This document shows positions 16,562 to 63,301 of a DNA stretch of 64,000 nucleotides, piece after piece (position 1 is the stretch's first letter; every line of letters begins with the position of its first letter). This DNA comes from a virus (lineage: Duplodnaviria > Heunggongvirae > Uroviricota > Caudoviricetes): IMG/VR virus record IMGVR_UViG_3300048670_001104, one strand, 5' to 3'. The notes beneath the pieces are model-generated. The model saw only the letters and a list, made by a program, of their open reading frames with translations, made no database searches and had not been told where the DNA came from. The translations under genes and the position numbers were made by a program.

Positions 16562-16613
16562 AGATACATATCCTCTGGTGTATTTACCAGAGCTGTGTAT
16601 CTAGTGTATTATG

Positions 16614-16934
16614 CTAAACGGAGAAACTTGATCCGCAGCCGCAGGTGGTTTTTGCAGCGGGATTATTGATCACAAAACTGGATCCCATGACATCTTCACG
16701 GTAATCTATTGTGCTGTCTTGTAGATATTGCATGCTCATGGCATCTACTACCACACGAACTTCTTCATAGTTAAAGTCAAAATCATCATCATTTTGATCT
16801 TCGTCAAAGGTGAATCCATAACTGAATCCCGAACATCCACCACCCTGCACAAATACTCTGAGCTTGAGATCAGGATTGGCTTCTTCGGCAATGAGTTCTC
16901 GCAGTTTGCTAACTGCTCCAGTTTCTAGTTTCAT
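16614..16934 (-). CDS. A-type Fe-S cluster carrier (IscA/HesB/ErpA family)
   Basis: [11 protein letters not shown] and the C-terminal CGCGSSF cysteine motif, typical of HesB/IscA. Confidence 0.85.
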
Positions 16935-16946
16935 AATTGATTCCGT

Positions 16947-17489
16947 TTATAGTCTTTCTGAGCACACATCCCAGTTGATGATGCGCCAGATATTGTTGAG
17001 ATATTTCTCTTTGTCCCACTGATAGTCTGTGGCCCACACATGCTCCCACCAGTCAATAAGTACGCATATATCTGTACGCACAGCATGATTTGCGATGGTC
17101 TTGATCTCTCCACCAGTGCTGAGATATACCCAGCCGGATCCTTGGATCTTCATGGCTTTTTCTTTCACAGCGTCCTGGAATGCTTCATAACTCTTGAACT
17201 TGCGTTCAATCAGTTCTAGCACAGCACCACGCGGGCGATTTGTGCCCTTGGGCGGTTGTAGTTGTGGGAAGAATTTGTTGTGTAAGAAACTGCCAGCACG
17301 GTTGAAATCAGGATCACCTTCGCCGGCATTGTAGCGTTTGGCATAGCCCGTGGCCAGATGCCCGTAGTGATAGTTGATACTGTCTGCACTCAGCACAGGT
17401 GCCAAATCATCTGGAGAATAGGGCAGTGGAGTGGTTTCCAACTTGGTTGGACGAGTGGTGGCTTCTATGAGATCAATATGTTCACGCAT
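16947..17489 (-). CDS. Fe/Mn superoxide dismutase
   Basis: LPYSPDDLAP..INYHYGH, FLHNKFF, GSGWVYL and DWWEHVW motifs. All four metal ligands of Fe/Mn SOD (His, His, Asp, His) are present. Confidence 0.82.
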   Translation of the reverse strand: MREHIDLIEATTRPTKLETTPLPYSPDDLAPVLSADSINYHYGHLATGYAKRYNAGEGDPDFNRAGSFLHNKFFPQLQPPKGTNRPRGAVLELIERKFKSYEAFQDAVKEKAMKIQGSGWVYLSTGGEIKTIANHAVRTDICVLIDWWEHVWATDYQWDKEKYLNNIWRIINWDVCSERL

Positions 17490-17497
17490 GTGAGTAT

Positions 17498-17716
17498 TTA
17501 GCGGCGGCGAGTTATACGACCTCTGGTGAGATCATAAGGTGAGAACTCAATCAACACACGGTCACCCAGTAGGATTTTAATATCATGTTTACGCATGCGG
17601 CCAGAGATGTATCCGATCACGGGTTTTGTTACACCATCTAACTGTATACGGAACATGGTATTGGGCAGCACTTCTAGTACCTTGCCTTCTAATTCTAGTG
17701 TTTCTTCTTTGGCCAT
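17498..17716 (-). CDS. infA: translation initiation factor IF-1
   Basis: [68 protein letters not shown] aligns almost residue-for-residue with bacterial IF-1. Start set at the internal Met (ORF track 17498..17869). Confidence 0.85.
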
Positions 17717-17723
17717 TCGTGCA

Positions 17724-18176
17724 TTACTTAGCGAAACTGATCTCCGCGGTAATCTTCTGTAGCCGATCATAGCGGAAACTGCGCCAGGCATTCTGATCCA
17801 GATCATACACACGCTGTGTGACAGGATCAGGTTCCTTGCGTAGCTTTCGGCTTTCTGCAAGCCCATCAATGTTCACAGTAGAACTAGCCTCAATCTCTGT
17901 GGGCACAGGTTTGGGAGGCGCAGGTGGAATTCGACTTCGGTCCAGAGTGCATCGCATGTCTCGTACAGTGCCATCTGATTTCACAAACTGCACAGTGACT
18001 ATGGTGTTGCCCAGCAGATTCTGCACCCAGCCACGGATCTGTTTTCGGTCAGCCTCGTCGGCTTCCTGATATTGTGTGCCCGGCTGACCTTTTAGCAGCC
18101 GGAACACTTCTGCTTTTTCCCAATCTAATGTATCCATAACATCTCCTCTAAAAGTTAACGACCGTTTTTTCTTCAT
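17724..18176 (-). CDS. hypothetical protein
   Basis: 150 aa. ATGA overlap with the upstream paralog gene at 18173-18176. Confidence 0.5.
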
Positions 18177-18391
18177 GACCATCTCAGCAGAAACATTGTG
18201 TAATCTCTATTGTTTTCCCAAATACACCAATCCATGTTATCATCCGCTGGTATATCGAATTTACCCAACAATTCTCTCGCTGCTGCTCTTCGATATTCCG
18301 TTGGCAATTCCATCAGATCAGCAACAAATGGTGCCAATCGACTTTGCAATCTTGGAAACTTGGTCAGTTTATAAAATTGCATTTTAATCAT
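18173..18391 (-). CDS. small protein of FLL(K/R)W(S/Q) paralog family (copy 5)
   Basis: C-terminus ...[18 protein letters not shown]. Start trimmed to the Met whose ATG overlaps the upstream stop (ATGA). Confidence 0.5.
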   Translation of the reverse strand: MIKMQFYKLTKFPRLQSRLAPFVADLMELPTEYRRAAARELLGKFDIPADDNMDWCIWENNRDYTMFLLRWS

Positions 18392-18582
18392 TGCCACCTC
18401 AACAAGAACCATGCAGCATGTTTTTCCTCGCGGAACTCGAACACACCTTCGCCCATATACCCCCACCCATCGTCGATATGCCTACCGAATTGTTTCGAGC
18501 ACCATTCAACACAAGGTGTCCACCCTTGATTGACCAAAGGGGACATCACGCTGACCACATACCATCCGTTGACCGGGTTCAT
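18388..18582 (-). CDS. small protein of FLL(K/R)W(S/Q) paralog family (copy 4)
   Basis: ...EWCSKQFG...EKHAAWFLLRWQ. ATGA junction at 18579-18582. Confidence 0.5.
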   Translation of the reverse strand: MNPVNGWYVVSVMSPLVNQGWTPCVEWCSKQFGRHIDDGWGYMGEGVFEFREEKHAAWFLLRWQ

Positions 18583-18800
18583 GACCACCTCATCAAGAAC
18601 ATGGTCAGGTCCTGTGGTCGTTTGAAATACCACCGGCCGTTGGAATAACTATAGGTTTCGTCTGGGAAAGTCTCTGAACACCAGGCGCTTTGATCCCACA
18701 ACTCACGGTCGGGTGTGAGCGCATGGGCCGCCGGGGTGCTATGAGTCAGTCGAACTCTGCGGCGACCGTAATCAACATTCAATACAGGATTCTCTGTCAT
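18579..18800 (-). CDS. small protein of FLL(K/R)W(S/Q) paralog family (copy 3)
   Basis: ...AWCSETF...RPQDLTMFLMRWS. ATGA junction at 18797-18800. Confidence 0.5.
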   Translation of the reverse strand: MTENPVLNVDYGRRRVRLTHSTPAAHALTPDRELWDQSAWCSETFPDETYSYSNGRWYFKRPQDLTMFLMRWS

Positions 18801-19051
18801 GACCATTTCAACAGGAACCACACGTAATCTGCTTCATCACGGAACCATAAATGTTGTCCGTTTGTGTACCAACGTTCGTCGGGCAGACTCATTCTCTTTT
18901 TGGGACCATCCAGATGCGTAATGCTGCTGGTAGTTTGGCCAAACTGTTCGTCACACCACCGCACTTGTGTGCTCCATTCTTTTCCACCATTGGGAACAAG
19001 TATAGTATAATAAGGTCGGCCGTATACTGTGCTTTGTTCGTTTGTGTTCAT
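18797..19051 (-). CDS. small protein of FLL(K/R)W(S/Q) paralog family (copy 2)
   Basis: ...RWCDEQFG...DEADYVWFLLKWS. ATGA junction at 19048-19051. Confidence 0.5.
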   Translation of the reverse strand: MNTNEQSTVYGRPYYTILVPNGGKEWSTQVRWCDEQFGQTTSSITHLDGPKKRMSLPDERWYTNGQHLWFRDEADYVWFLLKWS

Positions 19052-19341
19052 GACCACTTCAATAAAAACATGGTTCTGTCTGCTTCATTGCGGAACCAAT
19101 ACTTACGATCACTGCCCACCCAGAGTCCATGTTCGGTCATCCAATCACCGTTGCCGAATGTGATCACTACCCAATCTCCCATCTTATCCCACTCCTTACG
19201 AGAGTAGTTGCATGGCTGGACCCAATAGGGCCATCGAGTTTGATTGTCAGCATAACCAGTTTCAAGGCGTTTCATGGTGAGTTGGGCTATAGTATCCGTT
19301 ATTTCATCTACCCACTTGGCGGTGAATCCCTTGTTGGTCAT
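19048..19341 (-). CDS. small protein of FLL(K/R)W(S/Q) paralog family (copy 1)
   Basis: ...NEADRTMFLLKWS. ATGA junction at 19338-19341. Confidence 0.5.
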   Translation of the reverse strand: MTNKGFTAKWVDEITDTIAQLTMKRLETGYADNQTRWPYWVQPCNYSRKEWDKMGDWVVITFGNGDWMTEHGLWVGSDRKYWFRNEADRTMFLLKWS

Positions 19342-19727
19342 CGACGCATTGAGGCGGCGTCTATTGCTTGTTGCTGGTTGAACACCGGCTGCAAACAAGA
19401 TTTATGTAGGACAGTCACTCCAATGATCTCAGTGCCTGTATAAACTTTCACATTGGGCGTGGTGTCATGCCCTGCTGTGACCCTGCTGGGGATGTGATGA
19501 GTGTTGGTGCGACCCACTGGCGTTTCCAGTCGATACACCAAGGGCTCTGCTTTCATAGCACGGGCTTGTTTTTTCTTTTCTGCTTCCACACCTTGACGTT
19601 TCAGCAGTTCCTTCCACTCAGTATCAAGTTCGCGGGCCTTCTGGGCTTCAGCAGCATTACGGTATTTGAACTTGCCCTTTTTCTTGCCGTTGAGACTTAG
19701 GGCAGGGCCGCACATGTGCATGGTCAT
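19338..19727 (-). CDS. hypothetical protein (first gene of the promoter-driven operon)
   Basis: 129 aa. GGAG RBS. Directly downstream of the promoter at 19754..19782. Confidence 0.5.
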   Translation of the reverse strand: MTMHMCGPALSLNGKKKGKFKYRNAAEAQKARELDTEWKELLKRQGVEAEKKKQARAMKAEPLVYRLETPVGRTNTHHIPSRVTAGHDTTPNVKVYTGTEIIGVTVLHKSCLQPVFNQQQAIDAASMRR

Positions 19728-19753: not shown

Positions 19754-19782
19754 ATTATAGCACAGCTGGAATTACTGGTCAA
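19754..19782 (-). promoter_or_regulatory. sigma70-type promoter TTGACC-N17-TATAAT
   Basis: Plus strand reads tattatagcac...ggtcaac. On the minus strand this is TTGACC, 17-nt spacer, TATAAT. Confidence 0.7.
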
Positions 19783-32892: not shown

Positions 32893-32971
32893 TACTTTTT
32901 GGTGGTCAATGTTGCCAAAATATCTAAAAAATAAACGGCGCACATAAATACACTTGTAACCGGAGGCACCC

Positions 32972-35086: not shown

Positions 35087-35389
35087 ATGAAATACATATT
35101 TGCTGCACTTGTTTTGACATCCTCGGTTGCTCACGCTCAGTTGTCTGAATACGAGCGCCGATTCACCTGTGGCAAAACCCAGTTTGTGATCTCGGCCCTG
35201 ACTCGAAATGCCCAAGAAAAACCCATATGGTCCGGAACAGATCCGCAGTCCGGAACTGAAACCATGATATTACAAAACACCCGGACTCTGACCTGGACTG
35301 TGGTACAGTACGATCAGGACATGGCCTGTGTGCTGCACAGTGGCACAGGGTTTCGAATCCTAAAGGATTCTTTTAAAGAATCCCATTAA
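35087..35389 (+). CDS. hypothetical secreted protein
   Basis: 100 aa with signal peptide [17 protein letters not shown]. Confidence 0.45.
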
Positions 35390-35970
35390 CGAGTGGTTAT
35401 CACTTTGTCAGCCAGGCCATAGGCCACTGCTTCTTCCGCAGTCATAAAATTATCACGCTCCATGTCAGCTCGTAAAGTATCATATGATCGACCGGTGTGT
35501 GTGACATAGATATCAGTTAGAACTTTCTTCCAACGCAACAATTCGCGAGCTTGGATTTCCACATCTGTGGCCTGTCCTGATGCACCGCCCAAGGGTTGAT
35601 GGATCATGTGGCGTGCGTTGGGCAGGATATAGCGTTGGCCTTTGGCACCGGCGCTGGCCAACAACGAGCCCATCGATGCTGCTTGCCCCATAACAATGGT
35701 CATCACATCGGGCTTGATAAACTGCATGGTATCATAGATGGCCATGCCGGCTGTGACACTTCCACCCGGTGAATTGATATACAAGCTGATGGCTTTGTCA
35801 GGATTGTCTGCTTCCAAAAACAGCAACTGAGCGCACACCAGGCTGGCCGAGTGCCCATGCACTTCACCATCTAACATGATCACACGGTCGCGTAATAGCC
35901 GGCTGTAGATATCATAACTGCGTTCACCTTTGGAGGTTTGCTCGAGAACCATGGGCACTAGACTTGACAT
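35386..35970 (-). CDS. clpP: ATP-dependent Clp protease proteolytic subunit
   Basis: [26 protein letters not shown] aligns closely with mature E. coli ClpP. Ser-His-Asp triad context [14 protein letters not shown] present. AAGGAA RBS supports the start at 35970. Confidence 0.9.
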
Positions 35971-36947
35971 AATATTCCTTGTTTGATTTTGATCCACTGA
36001 TGTTGTACATGATCAGTGAAGTGATGTTTATTATATAGGATTTTCTCCTGTAGAGCAAGATATTTGGCTTGCCAATATTGAGGAGTCTGTTCGCACAGCA
36101 CTATCAAAAAGTCAGCAAGGTTGTCCGGCGTTGACAGATCCAAATCCGTGATGTCTCGGAAGTCGGTCACATAGGATTCGAATCCATGATCTCGCAACCA
36201 CTGTGTGCCGCCGTCGGGGTCATACACCAAGAATGGCCTGCATCCCACCACAGGCTTATAAATTTTTTCACTCACAAATCCTGTTCGATTGATATCATAA
36301 AATGTTTCTGTCACAATGTTTACAAAATGTCGTTGCCAATTCTCGATGTGTCCCAAACTCACTATGTCATTTGGTATACCATAGTGGTCTCGTGATGCAT
36401 TGGGTGCCAGATTGTCGTGATCTGTATCAACCACCAGAGATCTTGTGGCAGTTCCAGAACCACCCATGCTGACCATGCCGTGTTGCAACAGATCAAGAGA
36501 CTGCAATTCGTTGTAGAGTTTTTGCCGGTGCCAGTGTGGTTTACGATTCAAACACATGTAGGCTGTGTCGATCTTGGATGCATCGGTCAGTTGATCCAGG
36601 GCCGGTGCATTTAGAAATTTGTCCACAAACACAGCACAAAAATCCAAAGAGTGATCTCCAGGATAATATCCCACCGAGACAACTTCACAGTCAAACTCAT
36701 CGTACCAGTCTGGTCTAGGAATGGCAGCATCGATCATGGCCACCAGCACAATCCTATCCAGTTGATTGTTTCTCAACCAAGCCAACACCTGCTGATGATA
36801 TTCAGTGGAATACCAAACTGAATTTATTACCACAGTGCGACTGGTGTCTCGAGCCATGTGCTGCAACAGATCATCAACTATGCTTTGTTCAAACTGTTTA
36901 AGGGGCCAAACTGATCCCCATCCATTGTCAAATTTTTTGATAATCAT
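35958..36947 (-). CDS. glycosyltransferase, GT10 (fucosyltransferase)-like C-terminal motif
   Basis: NIVTETFYD...[21 protein letters not shown], compared with the FucT motif E(N/T)...TEK...A...G.VPVV.G. Paralog of 36928..37974 and 54705..56042. Confidence 0.55.
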
Positions 36948-37974
36948 GAGTTGTCAAATCAATCTGATGGGCACAAATCTTTTCAAGATGGCGGCGGTTG
37001 TACCGGGCAATTTCATGTGCCTGATCCAAAATCACATGTTGATCGCTGCGGCCGCGTTCCAACAGTGTGTTCATGCTTTTCCGCATGAGATGCCACCGTT
37101 CAGGGCCCTGATACAGGTCATAACTCTCATCCCAAATTTCATTATAGGTACGAAATCCCATACCACGCAATCTTGCAAGATAGTATCGCGGGCCGTAAAC
37201 CAGGATAGGTTTGGCAGCCATGAGTGGGCGAATGGTTTTTTCTGTAGGAAAAAAAGTATTGCCCTGTGTGTAGGTCTCACATACAATTTCCACAGCAAAC
37301 TGATCATAATATTGCAACAGACTGGCGTTGGTGTCGGCATATGACACAGGAGTGGCAAATTGATCTCTCACTGATTTAGAATCCACACTGGGTATGAGAC
37401 CTTTGTCAAACCAATCAAACATGTCCACTTGTTTATGCAGCGGTAACCAGTCAGATATGATGTCAAGATTACGCCGATGCTGATCAGACACCTTCCACGG
37501 AAATGGTTGTACATGTTGCATGAGACTGGCAAAAACTTGTGTGTGGATGGAACCGGTACCCGCAGGCATCAAGTTATACAGTATCGCTGCTCGGCTCATG
37601 GTCAATCGTCCGATGAATATGCCAAATGTTTGTTGATATTGTAATTGTTGTTCTAGGGTGGGTTCTGTGTGTTGCCAGTAATCTCGCACCATGGTAAAAA
37701 AATGGCTGAGGTCATTGCATGCAATTCGTCGATATGGCACGAATTCCACAGGATTGCTCCATCTCAACACATGCACAGTGTGCGGTGATTGTTGCCTATT
37801 TTTAAGCCAATCGTTTATCACTGCGGTGATGCCTAACAGTTCCAAGCTGGGCCCTTCGCTGCGTAGATCTAACACCAGTGGTTGTCCCTGGGGATGTTGA
37901 TTCAATTGCTGTTGGAATTGTGCTGGGTTGTTCCAGCAATCGCCATCAAATTCTACTGCTATGGGTTCTGTCAT
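36928..37974 (-). CDS. glycosyltransferase, GT10 (fucosyltransferase)-like C-terminal motif
   Basis: VEIVCETYTQGNTFFPTEKTIRPLMAAKPILVYGP...LRGMGFRTYNEIWDESYD. Confidence 0.55.
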   Translation of the reverse strand: MTEPIAVEFDGDCWNNPAQFQQQLNQHPQGQPLVLDLRSEGPSLELLGITAVINDWLKNRQQSPHTVHVLRWSNPVEFVPYRRIACNDLSHFFTMVRDYWQHTEPTLEQQLQYQQTFGIFIGRLTMSRAAILYNLMPAGTGSIHTQVFASLMQHVQPFPWKVSDQHRRNLDIISDWLPLHKQVDMFDWFDKGLIPSVDSKSVRDQFATPVSYADTNASLLQYYDQFAVEIVCETYTQGNTFFPTEKTIRPLMAAKPILVYGPRYYLARLRGMGFRTYNEIWDESYDLYQGPERWHLMRKSMNTLLERGRSDQHVILDQAHEIARYNRRHLEKICAHQIDLTTHDYQKI

Positions 37975-38002
37975 TTCAATACTTATGTGACACTAAATAC
38001 CA

Positions 38003-39578
38003 CATGAGAGATTTAATCAACGCACTTGATACCATAATAACTGAAGTGACCATCAGCAAACCCAAATATGGGCCCGGCACTCAATTTTCTGTGTCCACAG
38101 GATCAGAATCTGGGAAAAAGTTACTAGGATTGTTACAGCAACAAGGATTTGATGCTACCCCACCCATGACCAGACAAGATGCCGACGAAATGAGCGAAGA
38201 AGATATCCTAAATCTTCCCACAGTCTCATATGGAAAGGGCAGTGACGGTTATATTTTTTCTAACAATGCCGGACAAACTGTTTTGATTACTGGCAGTGCC
38301 AGCACTATTGGGCCGGCGTTCAATGCGTATACCGGGGCCACCGCCGATTCCGATGTTGGAAAAATTGCCAATCGCGGCGAGACAGCTGAAGGTATCCTGG
38401 GTGCTGCAATGTTTGCTAAATTTACCAAACGCGAACCTGATGAAGACATTGGCACAGTGACCCCTCAAGACATCAGCAATGTACTTGACAGTTTGCAACA
38501 AACTGGTGAAGATCAGTATCAAGTGGAAGTAGAAGATTTTGATAACAAACACGCAGATGTGATTTCATTTGTGCTGAGACTTAAATCTGGGCCGTATCAG
38601 GATCTCATGGATCCGGACAAACGCCCATTGTTGGCCAGTGAATTTAGTAGTGCTGCCGCTTACGTAAACAGTTCTGATGCTGAACGATACAGCAAGTATT
38701 TTTATATCAATGGCCGGTCAGACCAGATCGTGATCATGGCCGACGGCGTCACAGGTGAAAAAGAACAAAAGACCGATGTGTGGGTATATGTCACAGATGA
38801 GGATGGCCAGCCACGCAAACTCAGACTCAATACCAGCTTGAAGGTAGGTGGTATTAAACAGTTTGGACAGGTGGGTGGCGATAGTGAAGAAACTCAAGAA
38901 ACCTTGTGGAACTACTTTGGAATCAATGTAGGTCCTGCGTTGGCTAAATTTGCCAAAGCAAGAAAATCCAATTCACCAACAGCAACAAGAGATGCATTCA
39001 AACAAATGTATCAATACGCTGCCAACCAACTAGACCAAAAACTGCAAAACGCCAGCCCCAAAGATGAGGCCAACATACTGGACGGCATCGCCAATGGCAT
39101 CACACATTTTGCTACCCTGGGTGATCCTAATGTTGAACTTGTGGACTTTAGTGATGGTGGATTTAAAATTTTGAGATTCAACAAGTTGGTTGAAAAATTG
39201 AAAAATGTAGATCTCGAAGCCACCTATTCCGATAGCAAACCACAAAAAAATGGACCGGATCGAGAAACTTGGCCTGAGGTTCAGATACATGAACGCGACA
39301 ATCCTAAGAACAAACTACTGACCATCAGGATGAAAATAGAGAATAAACCCAACGGTGGTATCTATGTTCGCAACTACATTGAAAAAGGGCCGCTGTTGGA
39401 AAAACTCACTGAGTATCGAAAAGCCAGTTGGGATAGATCCCCGGCTGCTACCGGTGCTGATGAACTAGATGCAGTGACCAGCACACCAAGACTCACCGGC
39501 CCAGGTGCTAAAGCAGCAAGAACCAGCCACGAACCCAGGATGGATCGTGCCACACTGGGTAGAAACTACAAAGGATGA
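38003..39578 (+). CDS. hypothetical large protein (523 aa)
   Basis: Plus-strand ORF. Start set at the first Met that avoids overlap with the minus-strand GT gene. CTAAATA sits immediately upstream. Lies upstream of the LysM-M23 gene. Confidence 0.5.
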
Positions 39579-40791: not shown

Positions 40792-41367
40792 TCAGATAGA
40801 GGATATCTGATCGCAGATGTTGTAGGCCAATGCTTCTTCTGCTGTGAGCCAAACATCGTGCGGTGGTAACAAGGTCTTCCTGATTTCATCTTCACGCAAT
40901 CCTGTGCATTCTCGATAGTGTGCTACCATGCGTTTTTGTGTGAGTTCAAACTCCTTGATGGTGGCAAACAATTCATGCACCTTGCCATCTGTGCCCCAGC
41001 TGAACTGATGACTCATGATTGAGGTATTGGGAGTCAAGGTTCGTCGGCCAGGAGATCCTGCCAAGAAGATCATGAGCCCTGCTGATTGTATCTGGCCCAG
41101 CCCCACAGTCTTGATGTAGATCTTGCTGCTACGCATCACGTCAATCAGCGCAAAAGCGGCACTCATGTCACCGCCATCGCTACAGATCATCAACAGCAGT
41201 TCTCGTTTCTTTTTCTTGGCCACGAGATTCTCATGCAAGATCCATTCAATAACCGGGGCGATGGTTTCATTGCTCACATCGCCCATGAACACATACACAC
41301 CATGATCGTGTAAGGCATCATGGTGTGTGCGTTCTATGACTTCATTGCTGTCGGAATGAAGAGCCAT
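40792..41367 (-). CDS. ClpP-like protease subunit (second paralog)
   Basis: ICSDGGDMSAAFALIDVM...GQIQSAGLMIF (active-site Ser context) ...SHQFSWG (His) ...PHDVWLTAEEALAYNICDQI. Confidence 0.78.
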   Translation of the reverse strand: MALHSDSNEVIERTHHDALHDHGVYVFMGDVSNETIAPVIEWILHENLVAKKKKRELLLMICSDGGDMSAAFALIDVMRSSKIYIKTVGLGQIQSAGLMIFLAGSPGRRTLTPNTSIMSHQFSWGTDGKVHELFATIKEFELTQKRMVAHYRECTGLREDEIRKTLLPPHDVWLTAEEALAYNICDQISSI

Positions 41368-45134: not shown

Positions 45135-45165
45135 TACACCAATAAATATCTCATAGGAGACACCC

Positions 45166-56357: not shown

Positions 56358-56381
56358 TGCGTTTCCTTTTAAATATGTATC

Positions 56382-57185
56382 ATGATTATTGCATTTGACT
56401 TAATTTCTGATTTACATCTGGACACCTGGCCTGAAGAATTTAACTGGAGCGGACAACCTACCAGCCCAGTTTGCATAGTGGCCGGAGACATCAGTTCTGA
56501 TCCCAGAGTGGTGAGAAACTGCCTTAAGCATCTTGCCAACTGTTATGCGGCTGTGTTCTATATCGACGGCAACGACGAACATAAATTTAGATTTCATCAA
56601 CTGGGAGAGAGCTACCGAGACCTAGCCAGAGGAATAGGTCGATTGCCCCGCGTGACATATCTCCAGGACAATGTGATTGTGATAGATGGTGTGGCCATAA
56701 TCGGTACCAATGGATGGTGGGGATACGACCTAGATGAAACCATTGATAGAGATCATTCCAAACAACACATGGTTGATTGGTACGCCAAGATACAGCCCGA
56801 TCATGAAATTGATCCTGAAGTGATAAGTGATCTTTCTCGTAAAGATGCAGCATATCTCATTAGCACTGTACAACGGTTACAAACACACAATGATGTGAAA
56901 AAGATAGTGGTTGTTACTCATACAGTGCCCGGTGCAAATTTAATCCAACACGATATAGAATTATCAGGCACCACACAATTCAATCACATGGGCAATAGAC
57001 TCATGCATCTGGTGCATACCAATGATACTGAACGCAAAATCCATACCTGGTGCTTTGGTCATTATCACGGCAGTGTGAATCAGTACATCAATGGAATACA
57101 TTTTGTCAACAACTGTAGAGGGCGCGGAGACACCCCTTACAACCAAAATCCTTATTTTCCCAAACGCATCACTATAGAGACCTGA
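56382..57185 (+). CDS. calcineurin-like metallophosphoesterase
   Basis: DLHLD, AGDI, GNDEH, GHYHG motifs. Confidence 0.7.
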   Translation: MIIAFDLISDLHLDTWPEEFNWSGQPTSPVCIVAGDISSDPRVVRNCLKHLANCYAAVFYIDGNDEHKFRFHQLGESYRDLARGIGRLPRVTYLQDNVIVIDGVAIIGTNGWWGYDLDETIDRDHSKQHMVDWYAKIQPDHEIDPEVISDLSRKDAAYLISTVQRLQTHNDVKKIVVVTHTVPGANLIQHDIELSGTTQFNHMGNRLMHLVHTNDTERKIHTWCFGHYHGSVNQYINGIHFVNNCRGRGDTPYNQNPYFPKRITIET

Positions 57186-57531: not shown

Positions 57532-57549
57532 TGTATTTACACAATTATA

Positions 57550-58093: not shown

Positions 58094-58352
58094 GTTTCAT
58101 CGGCTCGATCATTCTGTAGTTTCGGAGTTCCGGATGTTTAGGATTCCAAGTCAGGGCAAAAAAACTATACATCTCATCGGGCTCTAGCACTACCCTAGTG
58201 ACATATTTTACCGTTTTGATTTGGTAAGCAATCGTATGCTTCTGATACCAGATCAGTAATTCTTCATGTAATATATGATTGACCCAAGCTGCTTGGCTAG
58301 GCTTGTCGTTGACTCCAAGATCAGCAGCAAGGAGATCAAACGCGATATACAT
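58080..58352 (-). CDS. hypothetical protein coupled to clpX
   Basis: 90 aa. TGATG 1-nt overlap with the clpX stop. Confidence 0.5.
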   Translation of the reverse strand: MYIAFDLLAADLGVNDKPSQAAWVNHILHEELLIWYQKHTIAYQIKTVKYVTRVVLEPDEMYSFFALTWNPKHPELRNYRMIEPMKLDNH

Positions 58353-59557
58353 CAGTCTGTGCCGTCTAACGCAGCAGGTGCTAGTACCATGCTGGGCTCG
58401 ATCTTAACGACCTTGATGCCCATTCCTGAATAACGACGTAGATTAAACATGTGTGGTATCAAGGTGCGTTCAATCTCTGAATGCAAGCCTCTAGCACCTG
58501 TTTTGTTTGTGAGTGTGCGTTCTGCTATGAGATCCAGGGCAGATTCAGTGAACTCCAACTCCACGCCATCTTCTTTGAACAGCCAGTGATACTGTTCAAT
58601 ATAGTTGTTCTTGACTTCGGTAAGGATGCGGATCAAGTCTGCTTTTGACAGTTCACGCAGGCTTACCCAGTTGGGAAAGCGTCCCACAAACTCTGGAATC
58701 ATACCAAACTTCACAAGGTCGTCCGGTGTGGTCATGTCCAGGTCTGTGTCTATACTGGCTTGTACTCGGGCATTAAATCCGATTGATGTGCCTTGCACAC
58801 GATTCTTTACTATGCTGTCTAGCCCTACAAAAGCACCACCGGCAATAAACAAGATATTCTTGGTATCGATCTCGATCATGTCACCGCCGGGGTGTTTGCG
58901 CCCGCCCGCAGCACTCACGCGGCACACTGTGCCTTCTACCATTTTCAGCAGAGCCTGTTGCACACCTTCTCCGGATACATCGCGTGTGATTGAGGTCGAT
59001 TCCCCTTTACGAGCGATCTTGTCAATCTCATCCACAAACACAATGCCTCTCTGTGTTTTGGCAATATCGTTGCCCGATGCAGCATACAGTCTGCTGATTA
59101 GACTTTCCACATCATCGCCCACATAACCTGCTTCGGTGATTGATGTTGCATCTGCGATGGCAAAAGGCACGTCAAGATATCGTGCCACACTTTTGGCCAG
59201 CAGGGTTTTGCCCGAGCCAGTTGGTCCCAACATCAGGATGTTGGCTTTGTCCAGTTCGGGTTCCGCTGTGGTCTTGCTGATGCGTTTGTAATGATTCACA
59301 ATGGCCACGGCCAACATGATCTTGGCAGAGTGTTGGCCTATCACATATTGATCTAGGTATTTCTTCAACACCATGGGATCCATCTTGTCTGATGGTTGTG
59401 GAGCGATCTCCACCACAGGTGTTTCATCCTTGAGCAAGTCCTGGCAGAAGTCCACGCATTCGTTGCAGATACCTGCGTATTCACCCACGATGAGGTTCTT
59501 TACCGAGTCTTTGTTTTTGCCGCAGAAGCTGCAATTGGTGTGTGTTTCTTTGGTCAT
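58352..59557 (-). CDS. clpX: ATP-dependent Clp protease ATP-binding subunit ClpX
   Basis: N-terminal C4 zinc finger CSFCGK...CNEC. Walker A GPTGSGKT. Extended similarity to ClpX throughout. Confidence 0.9.
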
Positions 59558-61605: not shown

Positions 61606-62304
61606 TTATTCTTTTCTGCCGCCGAACAACTGCAATAGATTGATAAACAGATTGATGAAATCCATGTACAAAGTCAATGCACCGCGCACTTCTGCGGCAT
61701 CACTGGTCTCTGCACTGAGTTCTTGACGGATTTGTTGTGTGTCGTAAGCAGTTAGTCCCAAGAAGATGATGATTGCCAAAGCCGAGATCACCATCTGCAT
61801 CACAGTGGATCCGATAAAGATATTCACAATACTGGCAATCACAATGGCAATCAAGCCCACAAACATCATCTGGCCCATTGAGCTTAGATCTTTTTTGGTA
61901 AAATAACCATAGCCACTCATTACCCCAAACAGGATGGCCGCACCCATGAATGCACTCACAATCGATCCCATGGTGAACACAGCAAAGATCGTGGCAAAAC
62001 TCAAGCCCATCAAGGCTGCAAAGCCATGCAAGCATAACTGTGCCACACCTTTAGTTGGATTGTTTCCTAGCACCATGCTAATACCAAATATTGCTGCCAG
62101 TGGTGCAAAGATCACAATCCACTTTAGGATGCCTGTAAAAAAGAATGCCAGCAACTCTGGGCTGGTTCCCACAAAGTAACTGACCAACATTGACACAATC
62201 ACCGCCAGGCTCATGTGTCCATACACACGGCCCATAGCACTGTTGATTTCTTCTGCTGAACGATAATTTATAAAACCGTTTTCTGTATAATTTGTACCAA
62301 ACAT
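61606..62304 (-). CDS. Bax inhibitor-1 / YccA family membrane protein
   Basis: Seven TM helices. C-terminal ALTLYMDFINLFINLLQLFGG matches the BI-1/YccA signature. AAGGAG RBS. Confidence 0.82.
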   Translation of the reverse strand: MFGTNYTENGFINYRSAEEINSAMGRVYGHMSLAVIVSMLVSYFVGTSPELLAFFFTGILKWIVIFAPLAAIFGISMVLGNNPTKGVAQLCLHGFAALMGLSFATIFAVFTMGSIVSAFMGAAILFGVMSGYGYFTKKDLSSMGQMMFVGLIAIVIASIVNIFIGSTVMQMVISALAIIIFLGLTAYDTQQIRQELSAETSDAAEVRGALTLYMDFINLFINLLQLFGGRKE

Positions 62305-63124: not shown

Positions 63125-63301
63125 TTAAAATAAAATTACGATCACAGTCATTACCAGAACAGTCAGCAATGACACAATTATACTGTATGCAATGGACTTT
63201 GTCAAGGTCCACTGCTCCAGGCCTGTCATGTTTCTCCAGGCAGTGATACCAAAGTGAATCACCACAGCAAGCACAGCAAACGCCAACCAGAGTCTAATCA
63301 T
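63125..63301 (-). CDS. small membrane protein
   Basis: MIRLWLAFAVLAVVIHFGITAW...two TM helices. Confidence 0.4.
   Translation of the reverse strand: MIRLWLAFAVLAVVIHFGITAWRNMTGLEQWTLTKSIAYSIIVSLLTVLVMTVIVILF

Follow-up and report, generated by a model that had tools for sequence, protein, structure and literature searches.

An IF-1-type translation initiation factor in a conserved gene module of a jumbo-phage lineage

Results

The IF-1 gene and its product

We examined a gene for translation initiation factor IF-1 (infA type) on a 64,000-nucleotide stretch of viral DNA (Caudoviricetes; IMG/VR record IMGVR_UViG_3300048670_001104), the whole of which is referred to here as the window. The gene occupies positions 17498–17716 on the minus strand, reading from an ATG at 17716–17714 to a TAA at 17500–17498, and comprises 72 codons and the stop. 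An earlier, sequence-only reading of the window had given exactly these coordinates, leaving the strand unstated. The gene is 45% GC and the window 47%. The same frame can be read from a TTG at 17869 to give a 123-residue product, which we rejected as an artefact: the extension (17717–17869, minus strand) overlaps the 3′ end of the neighbouring WYL_2 gene in another frame and is excluded from the IF-1 gene. Some JGI calls of relatives carry an equivalent upstream extension and run to 99–102 residues. Most relatives are called at 72 residues beginning MAKEE, and for this reason we take the ATG to be the true start.

Profile searches place the product in the IF-1 family. The TIGR00008 infA equivalog model is matched at 98.2 bits (cut-off 61.15, E = 2e-28), with residues 3–71 aligned to model positions 1–68 of 69, and phrog_30201 in PHROGs is matched at 93.7 bits. 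The sequence-only reading had called the protein IF-1 and had set this against membership of a cold-shock or other S1-fold family; PF01176 (74.2 bits, cut-off 30.2) was the sole Pfam match, with neither the cold-shock (CspA, PF00313) nor the S1 (PF00575) family matched at E ≤ 0.01. All 12 of the sequence matches in the PDB are IF-1 proteins. The alignment with E. coli IF-1 contains a single one-residue gap, and 39 of its 71 columns are identical (55%), so that the earlier description of a nearly residue-for-residue match holds for the colinearity of the two proteins and overstates their identity. The agreement lies well outside what chance would give.

An AlphaFold (AF2) model built from 26 lineage sequences (pLDDT 86) predicts a five-stranded barrel, with strands at residues 7–17, 21–26, 33–37, 53–58 and 65–71, and a short helix after β3 (residues 39–43). 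The predicted architecture is that of a single S1-like OB domain of ∼70–75 residues with its helix in the β3–β4 loop. The closest Foldseek matches to the model were IF1 chains in 30S complexes (9h9h_X, 9fco_I and 1hr0_W; root mean square deviation 0.9–1.2 Å, TM 0.91–0.95), with eIF1A and aIF1A next, and no cold-shock protein was present among the 50 matches listed. With TIGR00008, PF01176 and Foldseek in agreement, the 72-residue product is, by sequence and predicted fold, a genuine bacterial-type IF-1 homologue, as first proposed.

Ribosome-contact residues and lineage-specific substitutions

In IF1 bound to the 30S subunit, K39 and M42 contact G530, R41 and R46 touch A1492 and A1493, which are flipped, and the β1–β2 loop sits in the minor groove formed by helix 44 (h44), while H35, Y60, R64 and R66 face uS12 and the C-terminal Arg contacts rRNA (PMC10913371; PMC4611024). 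Aligned to these, the window IF-1 has identical or K/R-swapped residues at seven positions (K39 to R40, R41 to R42, R46 to K47, Y60 to Y61, R64 to R65, R66 to R67 and the C-terminal Arg to R71). M42 corresponds to K43 and H35 to Y36, and the LPNTMFR sequence of the β1–β2 loop is retained. All listed contact positions are therefore identical or conservative. A check of the 30S A-site contacts had been proposed with the sequence-only reading, and it found them kept not only in the window protein but also in 66 distinct IF-1 sequences of the phage lineage, across which they are invariant, K/R-swapped or conservatively varied.

Elsewhere the lineage departs from bacteria. We compared the 66 distinct phage sequences with 76 bacterial IF-1 sequences; the bacterial proteins were those nearest to the phage protein, which makes the contrast a conservative one. 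The aromatic residue that follows the helix, F or Y in 71 of the 76 bacterial proteins, is D or N in all 66 phage proteins (D45 in the window), and the aromatic residue in β5 (Y or F in 72/76) is R in 61/66 (window R70). The histidine of the β2–β3 turn, present in 70/76 bacterial sequences, gives way to a variable position in the phages (K31 in the window). Two further positions have P in 67/76 and L in 65/76 bacteria, with L and F, respectively, in 59/66 phage sequences each (window L50 and F58). The β2–β3 loop carries an extra residue in 51/66 phage proteins that is absent from 74/76 bacterial ones, and the phage C-terminus is one residue shorter than the bacterial. Since the D45, R70 and K31 positions lie outside any formal definition of IF-1, they mark a variant of the bacterial factor and do not exclude the protein from it. 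As a lead only, His29 of E. coli IF1 is said to be implicated in 50S-induced ejection of the factor.

A module fixed in the lineage

The IF-1 gene is tightly packed among genes of the same strand. Upstream lies a gene for a WYL_2 protein with an Sm-like SH3 β-barrel (17724–18182, minus strand; PF10902 at 43 bits, phrog_1086), whose stop is 7 nt before the IF-1 ATG. Downstream, 8 nt after the IF-1 stop, is the ATG of a 180-residue Fe/Mn superoxide-dismutase-like (SOD-like) protein (16947–17489, minus strand; Sod_Fe_C at 72 bits), followed by the last gene of the module, which encodes an A-type Fe–S cluster carrier (IscA/HesB-like; 16614–16934, minus strand; PF01521 at 60 bits, phrog_17776 at 144 bits). 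The SOD-like protein has a shortened N-terminal hairpin domain, and all four metal ligands align with those of P. gingivalis SOD 1UES (the His of YHYG, the His of HNKFF, and the Asp and His of DWWEH). Defence-system models (PADLOC) matched none of seven proteins comprising IF-1 and its neighbours at E ≤ 0.01.

A protein search found 2,910 homologues of the window IF-1, the best 120 of which are 70–99% identical to it. Every contig opened among these best homologues has the same neighbourhood, in the order NAD synthase, cell-wall hydrolase, small open reading frames (ORFs), WYL_2, IF-1, in some cases an inserted gene, SOD-like, IscA-like and tail-fibre genes. The contigs opened reach 240 kb, and 476 kb is on record. 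In IMG/VR, 280 stretches encode a relative of the window IF-1; 80 of these (up to 367 kb) were kept and combined with eight metagenome loci into a set of 88. In 81 of the 88 loci the SOD-like gene is found downstream on the strand of IF-1, with the two directly abutting in 51, and the IscA-like gene is downstream in 70. WYL_2 is found upstream in 58/88 loci and immediately upstream in 48/88. The exact window protein is already public on seven contigs, and JGI names it IF-1.

We also sampled in the reverse direction, fetching 80 loci through the SOD-like protein and scoring the 71 whose upstream sequence was 1.5 kb or longer. IF-1 was upstream in 70 of these 71, from which we conclude that it is fixed in the lineage, a widespread one in environmental samples, and is no occasional passenger. 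The SOD-like and IscA-like genes are as fixed as IF-1. The single sampled locus that lacks IF-1 in its 2.67 kb of upstream sequence (L207, IMGVR_UViG_3300032218_003673) could represent a natural loss or a gene located further off.

Two further observations concern the module and its surroundings. At loci L140 and L154, WYL_2 (72–75%) and IscA (82–84%) are close to the window proteins while IF-1 is only 61–62% identical, and at L097 and L099 IF-1 is 93–97% identical while WYL_2 is 59–65%; this discordance suggests recombination within the module between members of the lineage. Upstream of WYL_2, the minus strand at 18173–19398 holds five tandem, partly overlapping small ORFs of 80–116 residues that form a paralogous family with the C-terminal motif W..WC..FG...FR.E.D..(M/W)FLL(R/K)WS. 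The two members tested had no Pfam, PHROG or PADLOC match, and arrays of similar-sized ORFs lie between the hydrolase and WYL_2 genes of relatives.

Phage nature of the contig

When 20 kb of the window was compared by Megablast with 50,697 phage records, no match emerged, and the phage is consequently placed by protein similarity only. The window encodes a T4-type clamp loader (phrog_168, 263 bits) that is 51% identical to that of the Pseudomonas jumbo phage PA5oct and shares 41–44% identity with its counterparts in SCTP-2, Atu_ph07 and Phosso. Also encoded are proteins of the tail fibre and baseplate wedge (PHROG family matches), together with an endolysin/peptidase, a DNA methyltransferase and an endonuclease. 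Its cell-like auxiliary genes (ClpX, two ClpP, a Cpn10-like protein, NAD synthase, a Bax-inhibitor-1 homologue and UDP-glucose dehydrogenase) make up a set typical of jumbo phages. The contig is a jumbo-phage fragment, and the claim that its IF-1 is phage-borne is borne out by the clamp loader, the tail-fibre and baseplate genes and the position of IF-1 upstream of the SOD-like gene across the locus set. Homologues of the factor thus occur on bona fide phage genomes, as seen in phrog_30201, the hallmark genes and the 80 IMG/VR contigs.

Neither tRNA genes (ARAGORN) nor Rfam families at gathering thresholds were detected in the 64-kb window, which therefore holds no other translation component. 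As a side observation, the proteostasis and membrane genes of the auxiliary set (a ClpX with a zinc finger, two ClpP paralogues at 275 and 102 bits, the Cpn10-like protein and the Bax-inhibitor-1/YccA-type membrane protein) are located at 58352–59557, 35386–35997, 40792–41367, 1975–2376 and 61606–62304.

Selection and origin

IF-1 is under strong purifying selection. Between the closest relatives, non-synonymous divergence (dN) is 0.015–0.05 at a synonymous divergence (dS) of 0.5–1.4, giving dN/dS ratios of 0.016–0.054, and the median over 333 informative pairs is 0.078. The IF-1 at locus L095, for example, differs from that of the window by one amino acid, with synonymous sites near saturation. 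Identity of IF-1 to the window protein spans 58–99% across the lineage, and mean identities to the window are 70% for IF-1, 75% for SOD and 73% for IscA.

Relatives at 74–99% identity all lie in phage synteny. The best listed matches in GTDB (one genome per species) are 52–66% identical to the window protein, the best of them at 63–66%, and come from many phyla (at least 600 stretches). In a neighbour-joining tree of 149 IF-1 sequences over 72 columns, all phage IF-1 (the window lineage with Phosso, Lak, LR7565xx and DAC19) stood apart from 77 bacterial sequences, with a bootstrap of only ∼0.1; because of this value, we do not conclude a single origin of all phage IF-1. Acquisition of the gene by the phage lineage appears to be old, and no donor lineage can be named from the sequences compared.

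The highest identity in INPHARED (60.9%) belongs to two records labelled ‘Acinetobacter phage MD-2021a’ (CAKLQH020000005.1 and CAKLQF020000005.1; locus L090), which we rejected as bacterial contigs. Their infA lies among ansA, truA, gadX and leuBCD, and since this context looks like that of a bacterial chromosome, the gene was not counted as a phage IF-1.

Transcription and start-site context

A promoter-like site of near-consensus σ70 type lies 2.07 kb upstream of IF-1 on the minus strand (19754–19782; TTGACC, a 17-nt spacer and the extended −10 element TGcTATAAT), with a GGAG site and the opening ORF of a run coming next. It heads a packed, co-directional minus-strand run that ends with IF-1, SOD and IscA, with no terminator-like site on that strand between the promoter-like site and IF-1. 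Most relatives have a site of the same kind 0.45–3 kb upstream, with 11 or 12 of 12 hexamer positions and nearly always a 17-bp spacer. Counting sites with at least 11 of 12 positions, the window holds 11, against 0.92 expected from shuffles, on both strands together. Ten of the 11 lie on the minus strand, where every spacer is 17 bp and seven sites have TGn (first-hexamer starts at 63205, 61587, 43912, 42139, 35017, 34680, 23108, 22380, 19782 and 1488), and one is on the plus strand. Such a set suggests that a number of transcription units depend heavily on host RNA polymerase, and an early-type unit read by that polymerase is plausible for the IF-1 run. The sequence-only reading had placed IF-1 in an early region; the near-consensus pattern upstream is in keeping with that, the timing itself being suggested by the pattern only.

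No Shine–Dalgarno (SD) core precedes the IF-1 start, and among 73 distinct junctions in relatives just 15 carry one. Many window genes do carry canonical AAGGA or AGGAG at the proper distance, as counted on a heuristic gene list that includes some spurious plus-strand ORFs and omits IF-1, so that these SD counts are rough lower bounds. Four-base ATGA or GTGA overlaps join at least 10 gene pairs in the window, in line with the earlier remark on ATGA-type coupling. Separately, a heptamer TAAGTAA (17724–17730) is found 6–8 nt upstream of the IF-1 ATG. It is conserved at the nucleotide level in many loci (L083, L107, L113 and L140 among them), whichever TAA ends the upstream gene, and may provide a stop in two frames or, as UAAG, a weak SD-like element; across the window the heptamer is not enriched (4 observed, 3.9 expected).

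At the other end of the gene, a TAAATAC motif (17494–17500, minus strand) overlaps the IF-1 stop and lies 4 nt before the SOD ATG. Where the SOD-like gene of relatives directly follows IF-1, it is almost always preceded by the arrangement TAAATA[CT]-N3-4-ATG. We speculate that the motif is either a T4-late-like promoter element, which would yield a leaderless SOD mRNA, or part of a termination–reinitiation junction. TAAATAC is modestly enriched in the window (11 observed, 5.2 expected); for the T4 late-promoter octamer TATAAATA in its exact form there is no enrichment (2 observed, 1.1 expected). T4-late-promoter-like copies of (T)ATAAATA(C/T) are found on the minus strand at 17494–17500, 16580–16586, 2795–2801 and 57533–57539 and on the plus strand at 32945–32951, 45143–45149, 37994–38000 and 56370–56376. 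Several copies stand 16–30 nt upstream of an ATG and are separated from it by an SD, and three are 3–5 nt before an ATG, namely that of the SOD-like gene, a start inside ORF 37878–39578 and that of ORF 56382–57185. If the motif is a promoter, the transcripts of these three would be leaderless.

Discussion

Function of the phage IF-1

We consider it probable that this jumbo phage encodes a functional, A-site-binding IF-1 of the bacterial type which sustains initiation and is probably expressed from an early, host-type promoter. An ancestor of the phage lineage would have acquired the gene long ago, and it would since have been inherited vertically within a fixed module of WYL_2, IF-1, SOD-like and IscA-like genes. 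Starting from the homology, predicted fold, retained contact residues, purifying selection, fixation and phage context described above, we infer from the sequence how the protein binds the ribosome, when it is made and how the phage gains. Most likely it binds in the host 30S A site in the manner of cellular IF-1, where it would touch h44, the 530 loop and uS12 while supporting host IF2 and IF3. Initiation on phage messages could then continue, or speed up, after host gene expression is shut down in a long infection. The factor is probably made from the σ70 promoter ∼2 kb upstream, within an early-type operon.

Three points weigh against this interpretation. The replacements at D45, R70 and K31, together with the loop insertion, could mean that the activity is altered and non-canonical. 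IF-1 diverges about as fast as its neighbours, unlike the slow rate of the cellular protein. Finally, matches to a promoter consensus fall short of proof of early transcription.

The first of these points leads to the main rival, a tentative possibility in which the factor is re-tuned: it would still dock in the A site, with the substitutions altering cooperation with IF3 and IF2, or release, and so shifting start-site choice towards phage mRNAs such as weak-SD, reinitiating or leaderless transcripts. The sequence-only reading had suggested that the factor could bias initiation in this direction. Such a protein would fit with intact 30S contacts next to changes at three near-invariant bacterial positions and a β2–β3 loop longer by one residue. 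IF1 offers anchoring points to the C-terminal domain of IF3 and to IF2 (PMC5037330), and changes on its surface could for that reason alter fidelity. Candidate messages are also present, given the scarcity of SD cores at the IF-1 junction, the frequent four-base start/stop overlaps, and the three ORFs, SOD-like included, that would be leaderless if TAAATA[CT] with 3–5 nt before the ATG is a T4-type late promoter. On the other hand, many window genes have canonical SD sites and the enrichment of TAAATAC is modest. Part of the signature would moreover fall within natural variation, as Thermus IF-1 presumably also lacks the two histidines.

A related and rather doubtful proposal is that the IF-1 of the lineage is a specialised factor and not a spare copy. 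Docking would again be kept, and, through the three replaced positions that bacteria scarcely vary, altered release or altered cooperation with IF3 and IF2 would direct host ribosomes to phage starts, including SD-less reinitiation junctions and possibly leaderless late transcripts of the TAAATAC-N4-ATG type, as at the SOD-like gene.

It is unlikely that the phage has borrowed the IF-1 scaffold for an RNA chaperone or cold-shock-like OB protein acting off the ribosome, in RNA melting or antitermination. CspA-type proteins share the OB fold, IF-1 reportedly has RNA chaperone activity and compensates csp defects, and the adjoining WYL_2 is likewise a small β-barrel, of the Sm-like fold. The searches nevertheless returned no cold-shock or S1 family from Pfam and, among the 50 structural matches listed, IF1 at the top, then eIF1A/aIF1A, with cold-shock proteins absent; moreover, the residues conserved in the lineage are precisely those that contact the ribosome. 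Still less likely is a dominant-negative decoy that fills the host A site without productive initiation and thereby aids host shut-off. Retention of the binding residues alongside altered near-invariant positions would suit a decoy, but phage messages use the same ribosomes, so a blocker would inhibit phage translation too, and a plain blocker needs no canonical sequence under the strong purifying selection seen here. We also know of no shut-off strategy based on IF1 overproduction. Least probable of all, to a degree that we regard as negligible, is a host infA brought in by misassembly, binning or a prophage flank: some database ‘phage’ IF-1 are indeed bacterial, as the two MD-2021a records illustrate, but here independent viral contigs from many samples repeat one gene order, IF-1 fits tightly between phage genes at distances of 7 and 8 nt, the listed GTDB proteins reach no more than 66% identity while the closer relatives are all in phage synteny, and the gene and window agree in GC content.

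Significance

The view that huge phages take control of translation rests in part on the initiation factors they encode; in the literature searched we found no biochemical characterisation of such a factor. An IF-1 of this kind is small and easily synthesised, and the lineage offers a clean natural experiment, with the gene fixed over 58–99% identity, its contacts intact and its substitutions forming a short, defined list; the protein could reveal the role of the substituted positions in IF-1 at large. Taken as a discovery alone, the finding is incremental. The parts worth experiment are the lineage-specific substitutions and the near-universal retention of the gene within the clade.

Comparison with known IF-1 systems

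Like bacterial IF-1 (E. coli, 1AH9 and 9FCO chain I; T. thermophilus, 1HR0 chain W), the window protein is a single OB domain of 72 residues with the basic residues and LPNTMFR loop that serve the 530 loop, A1492/A1493, h44 and uS12; it differs in being encoded by a phage and in evolving at phage rates. With eIF1A and aIF1A it shares the OB core and the position in the small-subunit A site (Foldseek TMq 0.73–0.83), whereas identity is 14–28% and the N- and C-terminal extensions and helical subdomain of those factors are absent from the window IF-1.

The sequence-only reading had called phage-borne initiation factors rare, a description that does not survive comparison with the literature and databases. 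IF1 and IF3 are among the translation genes of huge phages described by Al-Shayeb et al. 2020 (PMC7162821), which those authors read as redirecting host translation, and a gene of the IF-1 family (‘Translation initiation factor 1A’) is one of the 39 single-copy core genes of Jug phages (PMC12880540); the PHROGs family, the 280 IMG/VR stretches and the JGI label point the same way. In the literature searched, we found no paper on the present phage lineage or on its IF-1 signature.

The IF1 proteins of huge phages (Lak megaphages, LR756508 and LR756511) are similar in length, at ∼72 residues, and belong to genomes of >200 kb. They are, however, only 44–49% identical to the window protein, keep the bacterial F or Y at the D45 position, and come from other phage lineages with other gene neighbourhoods. 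The Jug phages resemble the window lineage in that they too form a jumbo-phage clade with an IF-1-family gene as a fixed, single-copy core gene, a likeness drawn from description; they differ as gut phages of Bacteroides and Phocaeicola. IF-1 from the Bacteroides DAC phages is more distant from the window protein than is that of Sinorhizobium phage Phosso (PV764938, 469 kb), whose annotated IF-1 is the closest from a cultured phage at 57.7% identity. Phosso shares N at the D45 position and the ILLGD motif, and its clamp loader is 41% identical to that of the window. In contrast, it keeps Y at the R70 position, and its neighbourhood is different, running from a Clp-family ATPase through a MutT-like protein to IF-1 and then to hypothetical genes on the opposite strand. 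Phage IF-1 is thus a published gene class, and the lineage described here is a further member of it, with a protein already automatically annotated in public data.

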